Below, piece after piece: positions 5,504 through 64,000 of a DNA stretch of 64,000 bases (within the stretch, counting starts at the first letter, position 1; every line of letters begins with the position of its first letter). Location: contig BK006938.2 in NCBI GenBank assembly GCA_000146045.2, positions 928,001 to 992,000 of the forward strand, written 5' to 3'. Source of the DNA: TPA_inf: Saccharomyces (Eukaryota). A program made the translations under genes and the position numbers. The notes under the pieces were generated by a model. That model worked only from the letters and a program-made list of their open reading frames with translations. It ran no database searches and was not told the origin of the DNA.

Positions 5504-7138
5504 ATGGATAAATATACTGCTTTGATTCACGATGAGAATTTTTCAACTCTTACATTGAATGTCTCGAGATACCCTAAAAGTTTGGCATATTGGGAGAAGT
5601 TACTGAACTATATAGTAAAGGCTTCGGCACCAATATGCAAGTCCACTGAGCCTCAATTATTAAAGTTAATACGATGTACTTATTCTTCTATGCTGAATGA
5701 GTTTCCCTATCTAGAAAACTACTATATCGACTTCGCGCTACTGGAATACAAACTAGGGAATGTTTCTATGTCTCATAAGATATTTCAGCGCGGATTGCAA
5801 GCCTTTAACCAAAGATCTTTACTATTATGGACTTCATATTTAAAGTTTTGTAATAACGTTATCTCACACCAGAAGCAGTTGTTTAAAAAATATGAAACAG
5901 CTGAAGAATATGTTGGTTTGCATTTTTTCAGTGGGGAATTCTGGGATTTATACCTGGAACAAATTAGCTCAAGATGTACGTCTTCTAAGAAATATTGGAA
6001 CGTTTTGAGGAAGATACTCGAAATTCCTTTACACTCTTTTTCGAAATTTTATGCATTATGGTTACAGCGCATAGACGATATAATGGACCTAAAGCAATTA
6101 TCACAACTAACAAGTAAAGATGAATTATTGAAGAAACTCAAGATAGACATCAATTACAGTGGAAGAAAGGGACCGTACCTGCAGGATGCAAAGAAAAAGT
6201 TGAAGAAAATAACGAAGGAAATGTACATGGTTGTACAATATCAAGTACTTGAAATCTATTCCATTTTTGAATCAAAAATTTATATCAACTATTATACATC
6301 GCCAGAAACCTTGGTTTCTTCAGATGAAATAGAAACATGGATAAAATACTTGGATTATACCATCACCTTACAAACAGATTCTTTAACACATTTAAATTTT
6401 CAAAGAGCTTTACTTCCTCTGGCCCATTATGATCTTGTATGGATAAAATACAGTAAATGGTTGATAAATTCAAAAAATGACCTTTTGGGGGCAAAAAACG
6501 TTCTATTAATGGGTCTTAAATTTTCTTTGAAGAAGACCGAAATAATAAAACTACTGTATTCAGTTATTTGCAAGTTAAATGAGTACGTACTTTTGCGAAA
6601 TCTATTGGAAAAAATTGAGTCCTCATATTCCGACAATGTTGAAAACGTTGATGATTTTGAGATATTTTGGGACTATCTTCAGTTCAAAACGTTCTGCCAG
6701 AATTCTCTGTATTCCAGTCGATATTCTGATTCACAATCAAACGGGCTTTTGAATAAGGAGCTGTTTGATAAAGTATGGAAACGTTTGAGTTGTAAAGAAA
6801 AAAAAAGTGGTCAAGAAATTTTATTGAATAACTTAGTACAGTTTTATTCGAAGGATACCGTAGAATTTGTAGAAAAGAACATATTTCAAAAGATAATAGA
6901 ATTTGGTTGGGAGTACTACCTACAGAACGGTATGTTCTGGAACTGTTATTGCCGTTTAATTTATTTCGACACTTCTAGGTCATATTTGGACAAGAGGCAA
7001 TATATTGTCAGAAAAATATGGCCCCAAATAGACAAAAAATTTGCACAGAGCGTCTTGCCGTCTTTAACAGAATTCTGTGAGTCATACTTCCCAGAGGAGA
7101 TGGATACATTAGAGGAAATGTTTACTGAAGAACCTTAG
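5504..7138 (+). CDS. PRP42: U1 snRNP protein, HAT/TPR-repeat splicing factor, 544 aa
   Basis: 544-aa ORF recognised as yeast Prp42 (MDKYTALIHDENFSTL...). Confidence 0.88.
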   Translation: MDKYTALIHDENFSTLTLNVSRYPKSLAYWEKLLNYIVKASAPICKSTEPQLLKLIRCTYSSMLNEFPYLENYYIDFALLEYKLGNVSMSHKIFQRGLQAFNQRSLLLWTSYLKFCNNVISHQKQLFKKYETAEEYVGLHFFSGEFWDLYLEQISSRCTSSKKYWNVLRKILEIPLHSFSKFYALWLQRIDDIMDLKQLSQLTSKDELLKKLKIDINYSGRKGPYLQDAKKKLKKITKEMYMVVQYQVLEIYSIFESKIYINYYTSPETLVSSDEIETWIKYLDYTITLQTDSLTHLNFQRALLPLAHYDLVWIKYSKWLINSKNDLLGAKNVLLMGLKFSLKKTEIIKLLYSVICKLNEYVLLRNLLEKIESSYSDNVENVDDFEIFWDYLQFKTFCQNSLYSSRYSDSQSNGLLNKELFDKVWKRLSCKEKKSGQEILLNNLVQFYSKDTVEFVEKNIFQKIIEFGWEYYLQNGMFWNCYCRLIYFDTSRSYLDKRQYIVRKIWPQIDKKFAQSVLPSLTEFCESYFPEEMDTLEEMFTEEP

Positions 7139-52973: not shown

Positions 52974-53055
52974 CGACAACTGCAGGACTCGAACCTGCGC
53001 GGGCAAAGCCCAAAAGATTTCTAATCTTTCGCCTTAACCACTCGGCCAAGTTGCC
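52974..53055 (-). tRNA. tRNA-Ser (anticodon AGA), 82 nt, no intron
   Basis: Reverse complement GGCAACTTGGCCGAGTGGTTAAGGCGAAAGATTAGAAATCTTTTGGGCTTTGCCCGCGCAGGTTCGAGTCCTGCAGTTGTCG, the canonical yeast tRNA-Ser(AGA) with long variable arm. T5 terminator on its strand at 52969-52973. Confidence 0.92.
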
Positions 53056-53143: not shown

Positions 53144-53170
53144 TGTTGGAATAAAAATCCACTATCGTCT
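53144..53170 (+). mobile_element. 27-bp 5' fragment of an older delta LTR, interrupted by the Ty2 insertion; its continuation is at 59135-59149
   Basis: TGTTGGAATAAAAATCCACTATCGTCT directly precedes the Ty2 5' LTR. After the Ty2, ATCAACTAATAGTTA continues the delta alignment. Confidence 0.7.
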
Positions 53171-53461
53171 TGTTGGAATAAAAATCAACTATCATCTACT
53201 AACTAGTATTTACGTTACTAGTATATTATCATATACGGTGTTAGAAGATGACGCAAATGATGAGAAATAGTCATCTAAATTAGTGGAAGCTGAAACGCAA
53301 GGATTGATAATGTAATAGGATCAATGAATATTAACATATAAAATGATGATAATAATATTTATAGAATTGTATAGAATTGCAGATTCCCTTTTATGGATTC
53401 CTAAATCCTCGAGGAGAACTTCTAGTATATCTACATACCTAATATTATAGCCTTAATCACA

Positions 53462-54778
53462 ATGGAATCCCAACAATTACATCAAAATCCACATTCTCTA
53501 CATGGTAGCGCCGCTGCTTCGGTTACTTCTAAGGAAGTCCCATCAAATCAAGATCCGTTAGCCGTTTCAGCTTCCAATTTACCGGAATTTGATAGAGATT
53601 CCACTAAGGTTAATTCTCAACAAGAGACAACACCTGGGACATCAGCTGTTCCAGAGAACCATCATCATGTCTCTCCTCAACCTGCTTCAGTACCACCTCC
53701 ACAGAATGGACAGTACCAACAGCACGGCATGATGACCCCAAACAAAGCTATGGCCTCTAACTGGGCACATTACCAACAACCATCTATGATGACGTGTTCA
53801 CATTATCAAACGTCACCTGCGTATTATCAACCGGACCCACACTATCCGCTGCCACAGTATATCCCACCGCTGAGTACTTCCTCACCTGATCCAATCGATT
53901 CACAGAATCAACACTCTGAAGTACCTCAAGCTAAGACAAAGGTGAGAAATAACGTCTTACCACCACACACTTTAACATCAGAAGAAAACTTTTCTACATG
54001 GGTTAAATTTTACATCAGATTTTTGAAGAACTCTAATCTCGGTGACATAATTCCAAATGACCAGGGTGAAATCAAAAGACAAATGACTTATGAAGAACAT
54101 GCGTATATATACAATACCTTCCAAGCATTTGCCCCATTTCATTTATTGCCAACATGGGTAAAACAAATTTTAGAAATTAATTATGCTGACATCCTTACAG
54201 TCCTTTGTAAAAGTGTGTCCAAAATGCAAACTAACAATCAAGAATTAAAGGATTGGATAGCTCTTGCCAACCTTGAGTACGACGGAAGTACATCTGCTGA
54301 TACATTTGAAATTACAGTCAGTACGATCATTCAGAGGCTAAAAGAAAACAATATCAATGTTAGCGACAGATTGGCCTGTCAACTAATACTTAAAGGTCTA
54401 TCCGGTGATTTCAAATACCTACGTAATCAATATCGTACCAAAACGAACATGAAACTTTCCCAATTATTCGCTGAAATTCAATTAATATATGACGAAAATA
54501 AAATCATGAATCTAAATAAACCGTCCCAATACAAACAACACAGCGAATACAAAAATGTTTCTCGCACATCTCCAAACACGACTAACACGAAGGTTACAAG
54601 TCGTAATTATCATAGAACAAATAGTTCAAAACCAAGAGCAGCAAAAGCTCACAATATTGCTACATCCAGTAAATTCTCAAGGGTGAACAATGATCACATT
54701 AATGAATCAACCGTTTCATCACAATACTTAAGCGATGACAACGAACTTAGTCTTAGGCCAGCAACAGAAAGAATCTAA
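53462..54778 (+). CDS. Ty2 TYA (Gag), 438 aa; ATG lies inside the 5' LTR
   Basis: ORF track 53462-54778; Ty2-type Gag sequence. Confidence 0.9.
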
Positions 54779-57700
54779 GCCAACACGCACAATAGACTCG
54801 AATGACGAACTACCTGATCACCTTCTTATTGATTCAGGAGCTTCGCAAACGCTTGTCAGATCAGCCCATTATTTACACCATGCAACACCCAATTCTGAAA
54901 TAAACATAGTCGATGCTCAAAAACAAGACATTCCTATAAATGCCATTGGTAATCTTCACTTCAACTTTCAGAACGGCACCAAAACATCAATAAAAGCACT
55001 ACACACACCAAACATAGCCTATGATCTATTAAGTTTGAGTGAGCTGGCTAACCAAAATATTACTGCCTGCTTTACCAGAAACACTTTAGAAAGATCGGAT
55101 GGTACAGTACTAGCTCCCATAGTCAAACATGGAGACTTTTACTGGTTATCTAAAAAATACCTAATTCCTTCGCACATTTCAAAGCTAACAATAAACAACG
55201 TCAACAAAAGCAAAAGCGTAAATAAATATCCATATCCGTTAATACATCGAATGCTTGGACATGCTAACTTCCGAAGTATTCAGAAGTCTCTTAAGAAGAA
55301 TGCAGTTACATATTTGAAAGAATCGGATATTGAATGGTCTAACGCTAGCACATATCAATGTCCTGACTGTCTAATCGGCAAAAGCACGAAACATAGGCAT
55401 ATCAAAGGATCACGACTAAAGTACCAAGAATCATATGAGCCTTTTCAGTACTTGCATACCGATATATTTGGTCCTGTACATCACTTACCGAAAAGTGCAC
55501 CTTCTTACTTTATATCGTTTACAGATGAGAAAACCAGATTCCAATGGGTCTACCCATTACACGACCGTCGTGAAGAATCTATCCTCAATGTTTTTACATC
55601 GATATTAGCATTTATTAAGAACCAATTCAATGCTCGCGTTCTAGTTATCCAGATGGATCGTGGCTCCGAGTACACTAACAAAACTCTTCATAAGTTCTTT
55701 ACGAACAGAGGTATTACTGCATGCTATACAACCACGGCAGATTCTAGAGCACACGGTGTCGCTGAACGATTAAATCGTACTTTATTAAACGATTGTCGCA
55801 CACTGCTTCATTGCAGTGGTCTACCAAATCATCTATGGTTCTCAGCAGTCGAATTTTCTACTATAATCAGAAATTCATTAGTCTCACCAAAAAACGATAA
55901 ATCTGCAAGACAACATGCAGGTTTAGCTGGACTGGACATTACTACTATACTACCTTTCGGTCAACCGGTTATAGTTAACAACCATAATCCCGACTCGAAA
56001 ATACATCCTCGTGGCATTCCAGGTTACGCCTTACATCCGTCACGAAACTCTTATGGCTATATTATCTATCTTCCATCATTAAAAAAGACAGTAGATACTA
56101 CCAATTACGTTATATTACAAGACAACCAATCCAAATTGGACCAATTCAATTATGATACACTCACCTTTGATGATGATCTCAATCGTTTAACAGCCCATAA
56201 CCAATCTTTTATTGAACAAAATGAAACGGAGCAGTCATATGATCAAAATACAGAATCTGATCATGACTATCAATCGGAGATTGAAATAAACTCTGATCCT
56301 CTAGTGAACGATTTCTCGTCCCAATCATTGAACCCTTTACAATTAGACAAGGAACCAGTCCAAAAGGTACGTGCACCAAAAGAAGTTGATGCCGACATAT
56401 CTGAATACAATATTCTTCCATCTACTATACGATCTCGTACACCCCATATCATTAATAAAGAGAGTACCGAAATGGGTGGTACCATTGAATCAGATACTAC
56501 TTCACCTAGACACTCGTCTACCTTCACTGCACGAAACCAAAAGCGACCTGGTAGTCCCAACGATATGATTGATTTGACCTCACAGGATAGAGTTAATTAT
56601 GGACTTGAAAACATCAAAACTACACGTTTGGGTGGTACGGAGGAACCATATATTCAACGAAATAGTGATACAAATATCAAATACAGGACTACAAATAGTA
56701 CGCCCTCAATAGATGACCGTTCGTCCAACAGTGAATCCACTACTCCCATCATCTCCATAGAAACAAAGGCTGTATGTGATAATACACCCTCCATTGATAC
56801 GGATCCGCCAGAATATCGATCTTCTGACCATGCGACTCCTAATATAATGCCTGACAAATCCTCAAAAAATGTTACGGCTGATTCTATTCTTGACGACCTC
56901 CCACTTCCTGACTTAACTAATAAATCTCCTACGGACACTTCTGATGTTTCAAAAGATATTCCACACATACACTCTCGTCAGACTAATTCCAGTTTGGGTG
57001 GTATGGATGATTCTAATGTTCTGACTACTACCAAAAGTAAGAAAAGATCATTAGAAGATAATGAAACTGAAATTGAGGTATCCCGAGACACATGGAATAA
57101 TAAGAATATGAGAAGTCTGGAACCACCAAGATCGAAGAAACGCATAAATTTAATTGCAGCAATAAAAGGAGTGAAATCGATCAAACCAGTTCGAACGACC
57201 TTAAGATATGATGAAGCAATTACATATAATAAAGACAACAAAGAAAAAGACAGATATGTTGAAGCTTATCATAAAGAAATTAGCCAACTATTGAAAATGA
57301 ACACTTGGGATACAAACAAATATTATGATAGAAATGACATAGATCCTAAAAAAGTAATAAACTCAATGTTTATATTTAACAAGAAACGTGATGGTACACA
57401 CAAAGCTAGATTTGTTGCAAGAGGCGACATTCAACACCCCGATACATATGATTCTGATATGCAATCCAATACCGTACATCACTATGCACTGATGACGTCA
57501 TTGTCAATCGCATTAGACAATGACTATTATATCACACAGCTGGACATATCCTCTGCTTACTTATATGCTGATATCAAAGAAGAATTATACATAAGACCTC
57601 CACCACATTTAGGTTTGAATGATAAGTTACTACGTTTGAGAAAATCACTCTATGGTTTGAAACAAAGTGGTGCAAACTGGTATGAAACCATTAAATCATA

Positions 57701-58775
57701 TTTAATAAATTGTTGCGACATGCAAGAAGTTCGCGGATGGTCATGCGTATTTAAGAATAGTCAAGTAACAATTTGCTTATTCGTTGATGATATGATATTA
57801 TTCAGCAAAGACTTAAATGCAAATAAGAAAATCATAACAACACTCAAGAAACAATACGATACAAAGATAATAAATCTGGGTGAAGGTGATAACGAAATTC
57901 AGTACGACATACTTGGATTAGAGATCAAATATCAAAGAAGCAAGTACATGAAATTAGGTATGGAAAAATCCTTGACAGAAAAATTACCCAAACTAAACGT
58001 ACCTTTGAACCCAAAAGGAAAGAAACTTAGAGCTCCAGGTCAACCAGGTCATTATATAGACCAGGATGAACTAGAAATAGATGAAGATGAATACAAAGAG
58101 AAAGTGCATGAAATGCAAAAGTTGATTGGTCTAGCTTCATATGTTGGATATAAATTTAGATTTGACTTACTATACTACATCAACACACTTGCTCAACATA
58201 TACTATTCCCCTCTAGGCAAGTTTTAGACATGACATATGAATTGATACAGTTCATATGGAATACGAGAGATAAGCAATTAATATGGCACAAAAGCAAACC
58301 TGTTAAGCCAACAAATAAATTAGTTGTTATAAGCGATGCATCGTATGGTAACCAACCGTATTATAAATCACAAATTGGCAACATATATTTACTTAATGGA
58401 AAAGTGATTGGAGGAAAGTCGACAAAGGCTTCGTTAACATGCACTTCAACTACAGAAGCAGAAATACACGCAGTCAGTGAAGCTATACCGCTATTGAATA
58501 ACCTCAGTCACCTTGTGCAAGAACTTAACAAGAAACCAATTATTAAAGGCTTACTTACTGATAGTAGATCAACGATCAGTATAATTAAGTCTACAAATGA
58601 AGAGAAATTTAGAAACAGATTTTTTGGCACAAAGGCAATGAGACTTAGAGATGAAGTATCAGGTAATAATTTATACGTATACTACATCGAGACCAAGATG
58701 AACATTGCTGATGTGATGACAAAACCTCTTCCGATAAAAACATTTAAACTATTAACTAACAAATGGATTCATTAG
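54735..58775 (+). CDS. Ty2 TYB (protease-integrase-RT-RNase H), made as a Gag-Pol fusion by +1 frameshift at CTTAGGC (54752-54758)
   Basis: Open +1 frame overlapping the TYA end. Motifs: DSGAS (protease), integrase HHCC/DDE region, YxDD-like VDDM (RT) and RNase H at the C-terminus, KWIH stop. Confidence 0.9.
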
Positions 58776-59533
58776 ATCTATTACATTATGGGTGGTATGT
58801 TGGAATAAAAATCAACTATCATCTACTAACTAGTATTTACGTTACTAGTATATTATCATATACGGTGTTAGAAGATGACGCAAATGATGAGAAATAGTCA
58901 TCTAAATTAGTGGAAGCTGAAACGCAAGGATTGATAATGTAATAGGATCAATGAATATTAACATATAAAATGATGATAATAATATTTATAGAATTGTATA
59001 GAATTGCAGATTCCCTTTTATGGATTCCTAAATCCTCGAGGAGAACTTCTAGTATATCTACATACCTAATATTATAGCCTTAATCACAATGGAATCCCAA
59101 CAATTACATCAAAATCCACATTCTCTACACGTCTATCAACTAATAGTTATGAGATATATGTGGGTAATTAGATAATTGTTGGGATTCCATTGTTGATAAA
59201 GGCTATAATATTAGGTATACAGAATATACTAGAAGTTCTCCTCGAGGATTTAGGAATCCATAAAAGGGAATCTGCAATTCTACACAATTCTATAAATATT
59301 ATTATCATCGTTTTATATGTTAATATTCATTGATCCTATTACATTATCAATCCTTGCGTTTCAGCTTCCACTAATTTAGATGACTATTTCTCATCATTTG
59401 CGTCATCTTCTAACACCGTATATGATAATATACTAGTAACGTAAATACTAGTTAGTAGATGATAGTTGATTTTTATTCCAACATACCACCCATAATGTAA
59501 TAGATCTAATGAATCCATTTGTTTGTTAATAGT

Positions 59534-62500
59534 TTAAATGTTTTTATCGGAAGAGGTTTTGTGTTTGTGCCATATTAATTGTTTATCTCTAGTGTCCCAC
59601 ATGAATTGTATTAACTCATATGTCATGTCTAAAACTTGCCTAGAGGGGAATAGTATATGTTGAGCAAGTGTGTTGATGTAGTATAGTAAGTCAAATCTAA
59701 ATTTATATCCAACATATGAAGCTAGACCAATCAACTTTTGCATTTCATGTACCTTCTCTTTGTATTCATCTTCATCTATTTCTAGTTCATCCTGGTCTAT
59801 ATAAAGACCTGGTTGACCTGGAGCGCTAAGTTTTCTTCCTTTTGGATTCAAAGGTACGTTTAATTTGGGTATTTTCTCAGTTAATGAGTTTTCCATACCT
59901 AATTTCATGTATTTACCTCTTTGATATTTGATTTCTAAGCCAAGTATGTCATATTGAATTTCCTCATCACTTTCGCCTAGATTTATAATCTTGGTGTCGT
60001 ATTGCATCTTAAGCTTCTCTATAATTCTTTTGTTTGAATTTAGATTTTTGCTAAACAATACCATATCATCTACGAATAAACAAATTGTCACTTGACTGTT
60101 TTTAAATACGCATGACCATCCACGAACTTCTTCCATACCACATTGTTGTATCAGGTATGATTTGATAGTTTCGTACCAGTTCGCTCCACTTTGTTTCAAT
60201 CCATAAAGTGATTTCTTCAAACGTATCAACTTATCATTCATTCCTAAATGTGGTGGAGGTCTTATGTATAATTCTTCTTTGATGTCTGCATACAAATATG
60301 CCGAAGATATGTCTAATTGTGTAATATAGTAGTTATTGTCTAATGCAAGTGACAGGGATGTCATTAATGCATAGTGATGTACGGTATTGGATTGCATGCC
60401 TGAGTCGTAAGTGTCAGGATGCTGAATATCACCTCTTGCAACAAATCTAGCTTTATGAGTACCGTCACGTTTCTTGTTGAAGATAAACATTGAGTTTATT
60501 ACTCTTTTAGGGTCTATTTCTTTTCTGTCATAATATTCGTCAGTGTCCCAAGTTTTCATCTTCAACAGTTGATTGACTTCTTTGTGGTATGCCTCGATAT
60601 ATTTTTCTTTTTCTTTAATATCTTTATTATAGGTGATTGCCTCATCGTATCGTAAGGTTGTCCGTATTGGTTTGATTGATTTTACTGCTTTTACAGCTGC
60701 AATCAGGTGAATTCGTTTCTTCGATCTCGGAGGTTCTAAACTACGCATATTCTTAGTATTCCATGTGTCTCGTGATACCTTAATTTCAGTTTCATTATCT
60801 TCTAATGATCTTTTCTTACTGTTGATAGTAGTATAGGCATTAGAGTCACCAATACCACCCAAACTGGAATTAGTTTGACGAGAATTTATCGGTGGGAGTT
60901 CTTTAAATGGGTCAGGGAATTCGGTAGGAGATTCTGGAGGTAGATCAGGGAGTGGGAGATCAGCGATGATAGATTCCTCGGTATTCTGTTCAGAAACAGT
61001 AGTTGGCGTTTTGATAGGAACAATATTGTGCGATGAATTATTTTCCGGTGGAGAAGCATCGATTGAAGGTGAACGGTGTATAATCCTTTTCTCAGTCTCT
61101 TGGTCACTTATCTGCGGAACAGTTTTGTTGTTGGTACCACCCGTACTGGATATTGGTACGTTTGTATGATTAGTCTCATTTTCACTGTACGAGTCTGAGT
61201 GTCTGAAATCTTTAGATTTACTGGCGTGCGACGACTCATGTGTGTTAGATTGGGACATGGGAGCAAGTAAAGGAACATTTAATTTATGCATACCACCCGA
61301 ACCGGTACTCTCGATATTGGAAATTTGGGGGGTGCTAGATCTCTTCTTTGATGGAAGAATATTAGATTCAGATATGTTGGGGTCAACTTCTCTGGGTGCG
61401 CGAATATTGGTTTTAGAAACACGTTTCGAATCTTCAGTATGAGTTGACGGAGGTGTGGAATCGGTTGGACTCACAGCTTTTGAAAGGACATTTCTCGGTT
61501 GCTCAGGATGTAGTTCAATGTCGGATTGGAAGTCATGGTCAGATTCTATGTTAAGATCATTGGATTCTTGGATCTCATTTGACGCAATGAACGAATGATA
61601 TGAAGCAGTTAAACGGTTTAAGTCTTCATCGAAAGTGAGTGCGTCGTAATTGAATTGATCTAATCTGGATTCCTTGCCCTGAAGAATAACATAGTTAGTT
61701 GTATCTACTGTCTTCTTTAAGGATGGAAGATAGATGATATATCCATAAGAGTTTCGAGACGGATGTAGAGCGTAGCCTGGGATGCCACGAGGATGTATTT
61801 TGGAGTTAGGGTTGTGATCATTGACGATAACAGGTTGACCGAAAGGTAACAAAGTACTGATATCAAGTCCTGCCAAGCCAGCATGTTGTCTTGCAGATTT
61901 TTTGCTTTTAGGTGAAGCTAGTGAATTTCTCACAATAGTAGAAAATTCGATTGCAGAGAACCATAAATGGTTCGGTAAACCACTACATTGCAGTTGAGTA
62001 CGGCAGTCATCTAATAAGGTACGGTTTAGCCGTTCAGCGACTCCATGTGCTCGGGAATCCGCTGTGGTTGTATAGCATGGAGTTATACCATTTTTTTCAA
62101 GGAATTTATGGAGAGTTCTGTTAGTATACTCAGAACCACGGTCCATTTGTATAACCAAGACACTGGCCTGAAACTGGTTTTTAATAAAAGCTAGTATCGT
62201 AGTAAAAACATCGAGGATAGAGTCCTCGCGACGGTCGTGTAATGGATAAACCCAACGGAATTTTGTTGTCTCATCAGTAAATGAGATGAAATAGGATGGT
62301 GCACTATTTGGTAGGTTGTGAACTGGACCAAATATGTCAGTATGTAGGTATTGAAAGGGTTCGTATGAATTTTGGTATTTTAGTCGTGAACCTTTGATAT
62401 GTCTGTGTTTGGTGCTTTTGCCGATTAAACAATCAGGACATTGATAGTCAATAGCACTAGACCAGTCGACATCTGATTCGTTAAAATACGTGATGGTGTT

Positions 62501-63047
62501 ATTTTTAAGTGAGTATCGAATTGTCTGTGCATTGGCATGCGCAAGCATTCGATGAATGAAAGGATAAGGATATTTGCGTGTACTTTCACTTGTATGGACA
62601 TTATTGATGGTGGGTACGGAGATATTTGATGGAAGCAAGTACTTTTTAGATACCCAGTAAAAGTCTCCATATTTTACGATAGGTGCAAGTACAGTGCCGT
62701 CAGACCGTTCTAAGACGTTTTTGGTAAAGCATGCTGTGATATCTACTGCAGCCAATTCATTCAAACTGAGTAAGTCATAGGCTATGTTAGGAGTGTGCAA
62801 TACCTTTATTGATGTTTTGGTGTTGTCCTGGAAGTGAAATTGTAGGTCACCAATAGCGTTAATTGGTATATTTCTTTTTTGAGCATCAACTACGTTTATG
62901 TCAGGATTAGATGATGCTGAGTGTATGTGATGAGCAGATCTTATAAGGGTTCGTGATGCTCCTGAATCGAGAAGGAGGTGTCCAGGGAGTTCATCATCAG
63001 AATGATTAGTATGATTTACTGTAGATTCAGTAAGTTTCTGGCCTAAG
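59534..63047 (-). CDS. Ty1 TYB, entered by +1 frameshift at CTTAGGC (complement at 63041-63047); ends prematurely at 59534 because of an internal deletion in RNase H
   Basis: Frame reads ...[14 protein letters not shown] where the intact Ty2 copy continues for about 160 more residues. The C-terminal Pol codons ([17 protein letters not shown]) are still present downstream but out of frame. Confidence 0.8.
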
Positions 63048-64000
63048 ATGAAGGTCGTGCTTATTGTTCAATTGAATCGGTTCAGTAGTTGATTTACTGA
63101 TGGAATCGTTGTCCGTGCTGGGAGAGTTATTAGATGTGGATACATTGTGAGCCCTGGCTGTTTTCGATTTCGAATTATTTGTTTTTTGAGGATTCCGAGC
63201 TATAACTTTGGGTTTGGTTGTATTCGTATAGCTGCGAGAATCATTCTTCTCATCACTCGGATTTCTCCTGTAATTAGGTTTACTGTTTCTCGATCCCTGT
63301 TGTTCTTCATAAATAGCATGGATATCTAAGAACAGTTCAGCGACTGTCATATTTAGATGTCGATGACGTGTGTAGCGTAAAAATTTATATTCGCCAGATA
63401 GACCTCTCATAATTAATTGGCATGCGACCTTGTTATTGATATGAATGCCATTATTGTTCAGTCTGTCGATAATGTTTGTGACTTTTGTTTCAAATGCATC
63501 TGCAGGTGTACTGCCATTATATTGCAAATTTGCCAGGGTCACAATGTCGTTTGCCTCTTGGGTATCAGATTGCATTTTTTCAATACTTTTGGAAAGAATT
63601 TTCATGATATCCGTATAATCAACGGATAGGATGTCTTTGACCCAGGTAGGTAGGAATTGAGAGGGAGCAAATATTTGAAAAGTGTTATACAAGAAGGTGA
63701 GTTCATCATCAGTGATCTGACGTACGGGTTTTCCGTTTACTGTCGGAATAATACCACCGAGATTCGAGTTTTGTAAAAATTTGATGTATGTTTTAACCCA
63801 ATTTGGAAAGTCATTAGGTGAGGTTAACATTGGTGGTGGTCTGACATATTTTTTAGTGGATGTCATATCAGAGTCCGCTGAGGATGAATCAGTAAATGTA
63901 TTACCTGACTCAGGTGATGGAGTGCTCAGAGGCGTTCCAACTGATGATGGATACTGCGGAAACTGTGATTGTGGCCCAGGTGGAAAGTACATAGGCGACA
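63027..64000 (-). CDS. Ty1 TYA (Gag), C-terminal 321 codons in window (N-terminus beyond 64000)
   Basis: Ty1-type Gag translation ending ...[13 protein letters not shown]. Confidence 0.88.

Follow-up and report, generated by a model that had tools for sequence, protein, structure and literature searches.

Eighteen of the 32 'Ty1' copies in Saccharomyces cerevisiae S288C are Ty1/2 hybrids, in which the U3 region and the 3′ end of TYB are derived from Ty2 and the rest of the element is Ty1 (PMC4022208, PMC3511429). The hybrids are either 'short', with about 60 bp of Ty2 TYB sequence, or 'long', with more than 300 bp (PMC4022208, PMC3511429), and their architecture has been ascribed to recombination during reverse transcription in particles that contain both RNAs (PMC4022208). 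It is also known that a mini-Ty1 element consisting of only 380 to 575 nt from the 5′ end and the last 357 nt can transpose when the proteins are supplied in trans (PMC5454406).

Non-autonomous LTR elements with internal deletions and defective proviruses that are produced when reverse transcription switches between short direct repeats have intact termini and cis-acting signals, have lost an enzymatic domain and show short homology at the deletion junction. The element examined here, YDRCTy1-3, resembles them in each of these respects. Other Ty1/2 hybrids retain RNase H, whereas in YDRCTy1-3 it is gone.

Layout and Identity of the Ty2/Ty1 Pair

The window, a stretch of 64,000 nucleotides from chromosome IV of S. 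cerevisiae S288C (approximately 928,001-992,000), contained two Ty elements arranged tail to tail in its last 11 kb. The Ty2 element on the plus strand (53171-59129) had a gag gene for 438 amino acids and a pol ORF for 1346 amino acids, and no identical protein was on record for the latter in an exact-product look-up. Within the window, its two LTRs were compared over 300 nt and were identical, and the element was flanked by a perfect target duplication, CGTCT. The element on the minus strand had its 3′ end at position 59150 and extended past the end of the window at position 64000. The two elements shared an inverted-repeat arm, I3, of 339 nt with 99% complementarity, and the arms were 166 nt apart.

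The center of the YDRWTy2-3/YDRCTy1-3 inverted pair has been placed at SGD positions 987091-987188 (PMC3616911), which at an offset of 928,000 corresponds to window positions 59091-59188, centered on the 20-bp spacer at 59130-59149. The Gag-Pol protein, rebuilt from the window and from the 117 N-terminal residues found in L002, an independent assembly of this locus from long reads (locus tags SCEN_; a noisy sequence in which 122 gaps were opened over 20.5 kb), was 1604 amino acids long and matched NP_058148.1 and UniProt Q07793 exactly, an entry with the product name 'Transposon Ty1-DR4 Gag-Pol polyprotein'. Both the protein and the position fit, and we found no difference between the minus-strand element in the window and YDRCTy1-3, alias Ty1-DR4, of S288C. 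We take its genes to be those with the SGD names YDR261C-C and YDR261C-D. The lengths of the upstream ORFs fit what are presumably the chromosome IV genes AMD2 (549 amino acids), PRP28 (588), PEX5 (612), TRS23 (219), VHS1 (461) and EXG2.

Since the 1604-residue protein is identical to the database entries, the truncation of Ty1-DR4 Gag-Pol has already been recorded in the curated reference annotation, in RefSeq and UniProt. A limited literature search gave no explicit description of the 425-bp junction discussed below. No identical protein was on record for the truncated Pol ORF of 1088 amino acids, with either L or M as the first residue, in the exact-product look-up.

The 3′ LTR of YDRCTy1-3 (59150-59483, minus strand) was 334 nt long with TG...CA termini, and consisted of U3 at 59483-59244 and R-U5 at 59243-59150. 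It was preceded immediately upstream by the polypurine tract GGGTGGTA (59484-59491, minus strand), a motif that was identical in the Ty2 element and in L001, a full-length Ty1 element from another S. cerevisiae assembly. Of the 5-bp target-site duplication, TAACT, the 3′ copy was located at 59145-59149 on the minus strand. The upstream flank, the 5′ LTR, the primer binding site TGGTAGCGCC for tRNA-iMet and the second copy of TAACT all lie outside the window and were read from L002, so that the element is bounded by a perfect duplication when the two sources are combined. Between the 5′ LTR in L002 and the 3′ LTR, about 314 nt were alike and the final 20 nt of U5 were discordant.

The gag gene (TYA) occupied positions 63027-64000 on the minus strand in the form of its last 323 codons and a stop codon, with the first 117 codons past the end of the window. 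The available 323 amino acids were 100% identical to S288C Ty1 Gag and matched PF01021 (TYA). A +1 frameshift heptamer, CTTAGGC, was found at 63047-63041; the Gag frame ended at 63027, and the Pol frame went on from GQKLTEST. The Pol reading frame (59534-63047, minus strand) ran from this heptamer to a premature stop, with 1169 codons without a stop. Pfam searches of the truncated Pol ORF identified rve at residues 147-247, SH3_retrovirus and RVT_2 at residues 765-972, so that the integrase precedes the reverse transcriptase. The protease region had no Pfam match of its own; it was open and matched the reference protein. YDRCTy1-3 thus has the +1 frameshift at CTTAGGC, the integrase-before-reverse transcriptase order, the Ty1-type Gag, the LTRs of about 334 bp, the polypurine tract and, when L002 is included, the tRNA-iMet primer binding site and the 5-bp target duplication that are traits of Ty1. 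An earlier sequence-only reading of this DNA had described the LTRs, the primer binding site, the polypurine tract and Gag as intact; this is borne out when L002 is included, but it could not be observed in the window, where the 5′ LTR, the primer binding site and the first 117 Gag codons are missing.

A Block Deletion of 425 nt in Pol

To size the deletion, which had been put at about 0.43 kb from the sequence alone, YDRCTy1-3 was aligned with the adjacent Ty2 element and with L001. In the global alignment with Ty2, positions 57900-58292 of Ty2 paired with 59956-59564 at 92.6% identity, and positions 58718-59056 paired with 59563-59225 at 98.8% identity. The 425 nt in between (58293-58717, plus strand), which encode the RNase H core, had no counterpart in YDRCTy1-3. 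In the comparison with L001, 4441 nt aligned at 98.85% identity and were followed by a gap of the same size, 425 nt, at positions 6242-6666 of L001. The repeat arms I1 and I3, which were found independently, overlapped by 5 nt at 59558-59562. The loss is therefore a block deletion of 425 nt rather than a point frameshift, and no continuous RNase H coding sequence was present. Between the right edge of the deletion and the 3′ LTR, 75 nt were retained.

As 425 nt do not make up a whole number of codons, the Pol frame shifts to a TAA stop codon at 59534-59536 on the minus strand, as had been noted. At the junction, the last 54 nt of TYB follow directly on the ...IWHK(H)K codons and are read out of frame, and Gag-Pol ends 9 unrelated residues after the junction, which gives the C-terminal truncation to 1604 amino acids as compared to 1755 for a Ty1 Gag-Pol protein of normal length in S288C. 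An out-of-frame remnant of the original Pol end had also been recognized correctly, although the interval given for it, 59492-59545, was displaced by about 15 nt in the 3′ direction: the remnant covers 59506-59559 on the minus strand and comprises the last 17 codons (59509-59559) and TAG.

The Deleted Segment Encodes the RNase H Core

No RNase H match was obtained for the Ty C-terminus in sequence searches against Pfam or PDB. For Pfam, this is because a model of the copia-type RNase H is lacking there. The domain was instead examined in the homologous 181-residue C-terminus of the Ty2 protein, which was aligned with 18 relatives, modeled with AlphaFold and compared to the folds in PDB with Foldseek. 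The model had a mean pLDDT of 83.8, and its top fold matches, with Foldseek E-values down to 7e-7, were all of the RNase H type: archaeal and bacterial RNase HI, including that of E. coli, and the viral RNase H domains from foamy virus, XMRV, MLV and HIV-1.

The invariant acidic residues in the alignment were D36, E78, D111 and D161, all four of which are located between W19-H-K and T164-K165, that is, in the deleted stretch. The deletion takes out the whole catalytic core, which agrees with the previous assignment of most of RNase H to the lost segment. An autonomous Ty1 element has a complete Gag-Pol protein of 1755 amino acids with the RNase H catalytic carboxylates, and YDRCTy1-3 has not.

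The Deletion Junction

The junction at 59558-59563 on the minus strand reads TGG CAC AAA CAC AAA ACC TCT TCC. The left parental sequence was TGG CAC AAA AAC AAA CCT in every Ty1 element examined, with AGC in place of AAC in Ty2, and the right parental sequence, of the Ty2 or hybrid type, was ATG ACA AAA CCT CTT CCG. The motif ACAAA (59562-59558) is common to both parental sides and lies in an imperfect repeat of greater length, AACAAA-CCT and GACAAAACCT. The ACAAA microhomology proposed in the sequence-only reading is thus present on both sides, provided that the left parent is read as A-ACAAA. The adjoining base, C 59563, located just 5′ of ACAAA, had no match in any relative examined: the left parent has A, the right parent has G, and the relatives carry AAC or AGC.

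At the protein level, none of the 18 related proteins had His at the junction codon, and all of them had N or S. The idea that WHKHKP is the sequence of some Ty1 copies found no support among these 18 relatives. The junction can be read either as a 5-nt microhomology with one substitution or as a blunt join that follows CACAAA and includes one filler nucleotide; the net loss is 425 nt either way. A metagenome scan with the junction 27-mer TGGCACAAACACAAAACCTCTTCCGAT gave no matches, and we found neither a full-length parent of YDRCTy1-3 nor another copy that shares its junction.

A Hybrid of Ty1 and Ty2 Sequences

The affiliation of each segment was assessed at diagnostic sites, defined as positions where the Ty2 element in the window and the canonical Ty1 element, L001, differ. 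In the reverse transcriptase region to the left of the junction (60100-59564, minus strand), 29 sites were of the Ty1 type and 2 of the Ty2 type. The U3 region of the 3′ LTR (59483-59244, minus strand) was of the Ty2 type at 45 of 47 sites, with 2 sites of the Ty1 type, and R-U5 (59243-59150, minus strand) was of the Ty1 type at 17 sites and of the Ty2 type at none. The 5′ LTR in L002, which is 5.5 kb from the 3′ LTR, had the same Ty2-type U3.

These site patterns indicate that YDRCTy1-3 is a Ty1/2 hybrid with a Ty2-type U3, a Ty1-type R-U5 and Ty1 coding sequence. The label 'Ty1 copy' used in the sequence-only reading is accordingly appropriate for R-U5, gag and most of pol, but not for U3, and the element is not a pure Ty1. 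The defect is real but ordinary, in that YDRCTy1-3 is an annotated defective copy within the well-described Ty1/2 hybrid class.

The two Ty2-like sites close to the junction, 59576 and 59578 (CAATTAATA), also adjoined the Ty1-type sequence AAC AAA CCT ACC in L008 and L009, two collapsed contigs that were the sole yield of a degenerate metagenome scan for Ty 3′ ends. The sequence CAATTAATATGG was likewise present in Ty1-type contexts in these contigs, and the two sites are ordinary Ty1 polymorphism. Compared to the other hybrids, the changeover from Ty1 to Ty2 in YDRCTy1-3 lies at or inside the deletion, which fits either a 'short' or a 'long' hybrid parent. We considered the coincidence of the junction with the changeover as independent evidence for a switch between elements, but dropped it, since a 'long' hybrid parent would place the changeover inside the deletion in any case.

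Origin of the Deletion

We consider it probable, at roughly 60%, that the deletion arose when the reverse transcriptase switched template in a misaligned position, either in the founding cycle of this insertion or in an earlier one. Minus-strand synthesis would have copied the Ty2-type 3′ end as far as ...ACAAAACC, through U3, the polypurine tract and the final 54 nt of TYB, after which the nascent DNA would have paired again with the similar motif A-ACAAA-CCT located 425 nt upstream on the template. The non-parental base C 59563 would represent an error made at the switch. A single misaligned switch of this kind explains the deletion, the microhomology and the erroneous base at the switch point jointly. 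The hybrid LTRs imply that the lineage of YDRCTy1-3 has passed through template switching between different RNAs. Furthermore, YDRCTy1-3 is a single and young integration, as seen from the perfect TAACT duplication, the similarity of the LTRs over about 314 nt and the absence of the insertion from strain YJM789 (PMC3616911). On the other hand, the sequence gives no date for the deletion relative to the integration, C 59563 may simply be a substitution private to this copy or a polymorphism that was not sampled, and a second copy with the same junction, which would indicate passage through RNA, was not found. Deletions flanked by microhomology are also formed in chromosomal DNA by replication slippage or end joining, and it is possible, albeit rather unlikely, that a full-length element was integrated and later lost 425 bp in the chromosome, with the two ACAAA(A)CCT motifs as the sites of slippage or microhomology-mediated end joining. 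The 5-nt microhomology is compatible with either mechanism, and the location of the element in a close inverted Ty pair that constitutes HS4, a hotspot for mitotic breaks and recombination (PMC3616911), could raise the local frequency of breakage. Yet the near-undiverged LTRs and the strain-polymorphic insertion leave little time for such a rare event, and a non-parental base at the junction is not expected under simple slippage. In addition, rearrangements are far more common per event during the reverse transcription of Ty elements and retroviruses than in chromosomes.

The proximity of the Ty2 element raises the question of whether gene conversion or recombination with this inverted neighbor has produced both the junction and the Ty2-like 3′ end. 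The two elements are 99% complementary over the 339 nt of arm I3, with a distance of only 166 nt between the arms, the 339 nt at the 3′ end are 98.8% identical, and the 3′ end of YDRCTy1-3 is far closer to the neighboring Ty2 than to canonical Ty1. However, the same Ty2-type U3 is present in the 5′ LTR in L002, 5.5 kb away, and must therefore have arrived at reverse transcription and not from the neighbor. Moreover, R-U5 of the 3′ LTR is of the Ty1 type at 17 of 17 sites although it is the segment nearest to Ty2, and each element retains its own perfect target duplication, CGTCT and TAACT, which together make conversion by the neighbor highly improbable. Ty repeats are often misassembled, and the apparent deletion could in principle be an assembly error, or in reality a point frameshift. 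We assign a negligible probability to both, given that the same 425-nt gap was obtained against two independent references, the Ty2 element and L001, that the junction string GGCACAAACACAAAACCTC recurs without change in the independent long-read assembly L002, and that the truncated protein corresponds to a curated entry in RefSeq and UniProt.

It may be speculated further that YDRCTy1-3 is the fossil of one aberrant reverse transcription event in a particle with two different RNAs, although we regard this as unlikely. Four features could then go back to one and the same event: the U3 of the Ty2 type, the U5 discordance over the last 20 nt, the misaligned switch with its loss of RNase H, and the non-templated base at the junction. 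If so, YDRCTy1-3 would be a natural record of strand transfers between templates in Ty1, including read-through of the minus strand on the second RNA.

Functional Consequences

Within the window, the available part of Gag, the +1 frameshift site, the integrase, the polymerase domain of the reverse transcriptase, the polypurine tract and the 3′ LTR were intact. YDRCTy1-3 is nevertheless predicted to be non-autonomous, with a Pol protein that would be unable to complete reverse transcription, because a reverse transcriptase without RNase H cannot remove the RNA template or generate the polypurine tract primer. The element could be mobilized by Pol from other Ty1 copies, as it retains all known cis elements required, both the 5′ 380-575 nt and the last 357 nt that suffice in the mini-Ty1. 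The latter region is untouched, since the deletion stops 75 nt short of the 3′ LTR. In this respect YDRCTy1-3 is similar to the engineered mini-Ty1/helper system, in which comparable RNAs can be mobilized in trans (PMC5454406). It differs from families of deleted non-autonomous elements in that a single copy is known and amplification is not in evidence, and in that its deletion is only probably a product of reverse transcription.

Ty1/2 hybrids and defective Ty copies are already well described, and the significance of YDRCTy1-3 is mainly one of annotation hygiene: tallies of functional Ty1 elements should list it as non-autonomous. Two small residual points are the non-parental base at the junction and the U5 discordance between the LTRs. 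They could make a minor natural case study of strand-transfer errors, should population data show that they have a joint origin. Finally, through the deletion, the inverted Ty2/Ty1 pair at the HS4 hotspot of mitotic recombination is asymmetric by 425 nt.

Insertion site and inverted-repeat structure

A single older solo delta was the target of both the plus-strand Ty2 (window 53171-59129) and the minus-strand Ty1/2 hybrid YDRCTy1-3, which were inserted 15 bp apart in opposite orientations. The interrupted delta is divided between window 53144-53170 and 59130-59149 and reads TGTTGGAATAAAAATCCACTATCGTCT ^ ATCAACTAATAGTTA ^ TATTATC..., where the carets mark the insertion points; the tRNA-Ser(AGA) gene (window 52974-53055) is located about 90 bp away. 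The 20-bp "spacer" between the 2 elements (59130-59149) consists of delta sequence plus both target duplications, CGTCT and AGTTA, the latter being the complement of TAACT.

The inverted elements form arms of 339 nt each (window 58719-59057 and 59224-59562) that are 99% complementary and separated by 166 nt. Beyond these lies a second pair of arms of 1426 nt with 84% complementarity, which can pair only if the 425 nt of Ty2 RNase H sequence are looped out. The inverted Ty2/Ty1 pair is the mitotic recombination hotspot HS4 described in PMC3616911, and no mention of an asymmetry between the arms caused by the deletion was found in the available part of that paper.

Mosaic structure of YDRCTy1-3

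In comparison with L001, a full-length canonical Ty1 from another S. cerevisiae assembly, YDRCTy1-3 contained only 3 mismatches across 3 kb (window 64000-61000) versus 36 mismatches in 1 kb of the reverse transcriptase region (60000-60999). This uneven distribution shows that YDRCTy1-3 is a mosaic inside pol as well, and not at its 3' end alone. L003 (P0042), another Ty1 with canonical Ty1 LTRs, contains roughly 100 nt of Ty2-type sequence at about 6245-6350. This stretch starts directly after the WHKNKP codons, which is the position of the left edge of the deletion in YDRCTy1-3. The agreement between the 2 positions may reflect a recombination-prone site or may be a coincidence.

The U5 ends of both LTRs are expected to be identical under standard reverse transcription, and the LTR pairs were concordant in L001, L003, and the Ty2 in the window. 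The 5' LTR of YDRCTy1-3, taken from an independent, noisy long-read assembly of the same locus (L002), matched the 3' LTR in U3, R, and proximal U5, with the mismatch confined to the final ~20 nt of U5: the 5' LTR terminates in ...ATCTCAACATTCACCCATTTCTCA (L002 20990-21011) and the 3' LTR in ...ATCTAATTACCCACATATATCTCA (window 59150-59176). The 5' U5 variant was accompanied by a distinct haplotype at gag codons 39-44, KTEECEK as compared to KIQEYDK in L001. Possible explanations for the discordance are a heteroduplex formed after strand transfer between RNAs and a short gene conversion at a later time.

Private substitutions in the neighboring Ty2

The neighboring Ty2 encodes Met at window 58707, where all relatives have Lys, within the conserved motif ...YIETK(K/M)NIADV... 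close to the final carboxylate of RNase H. A T at window 58757 (AACTAAC) is likewise private to this Ty2. The 2 private substitutions are minor, and the copy is intact apart from them.
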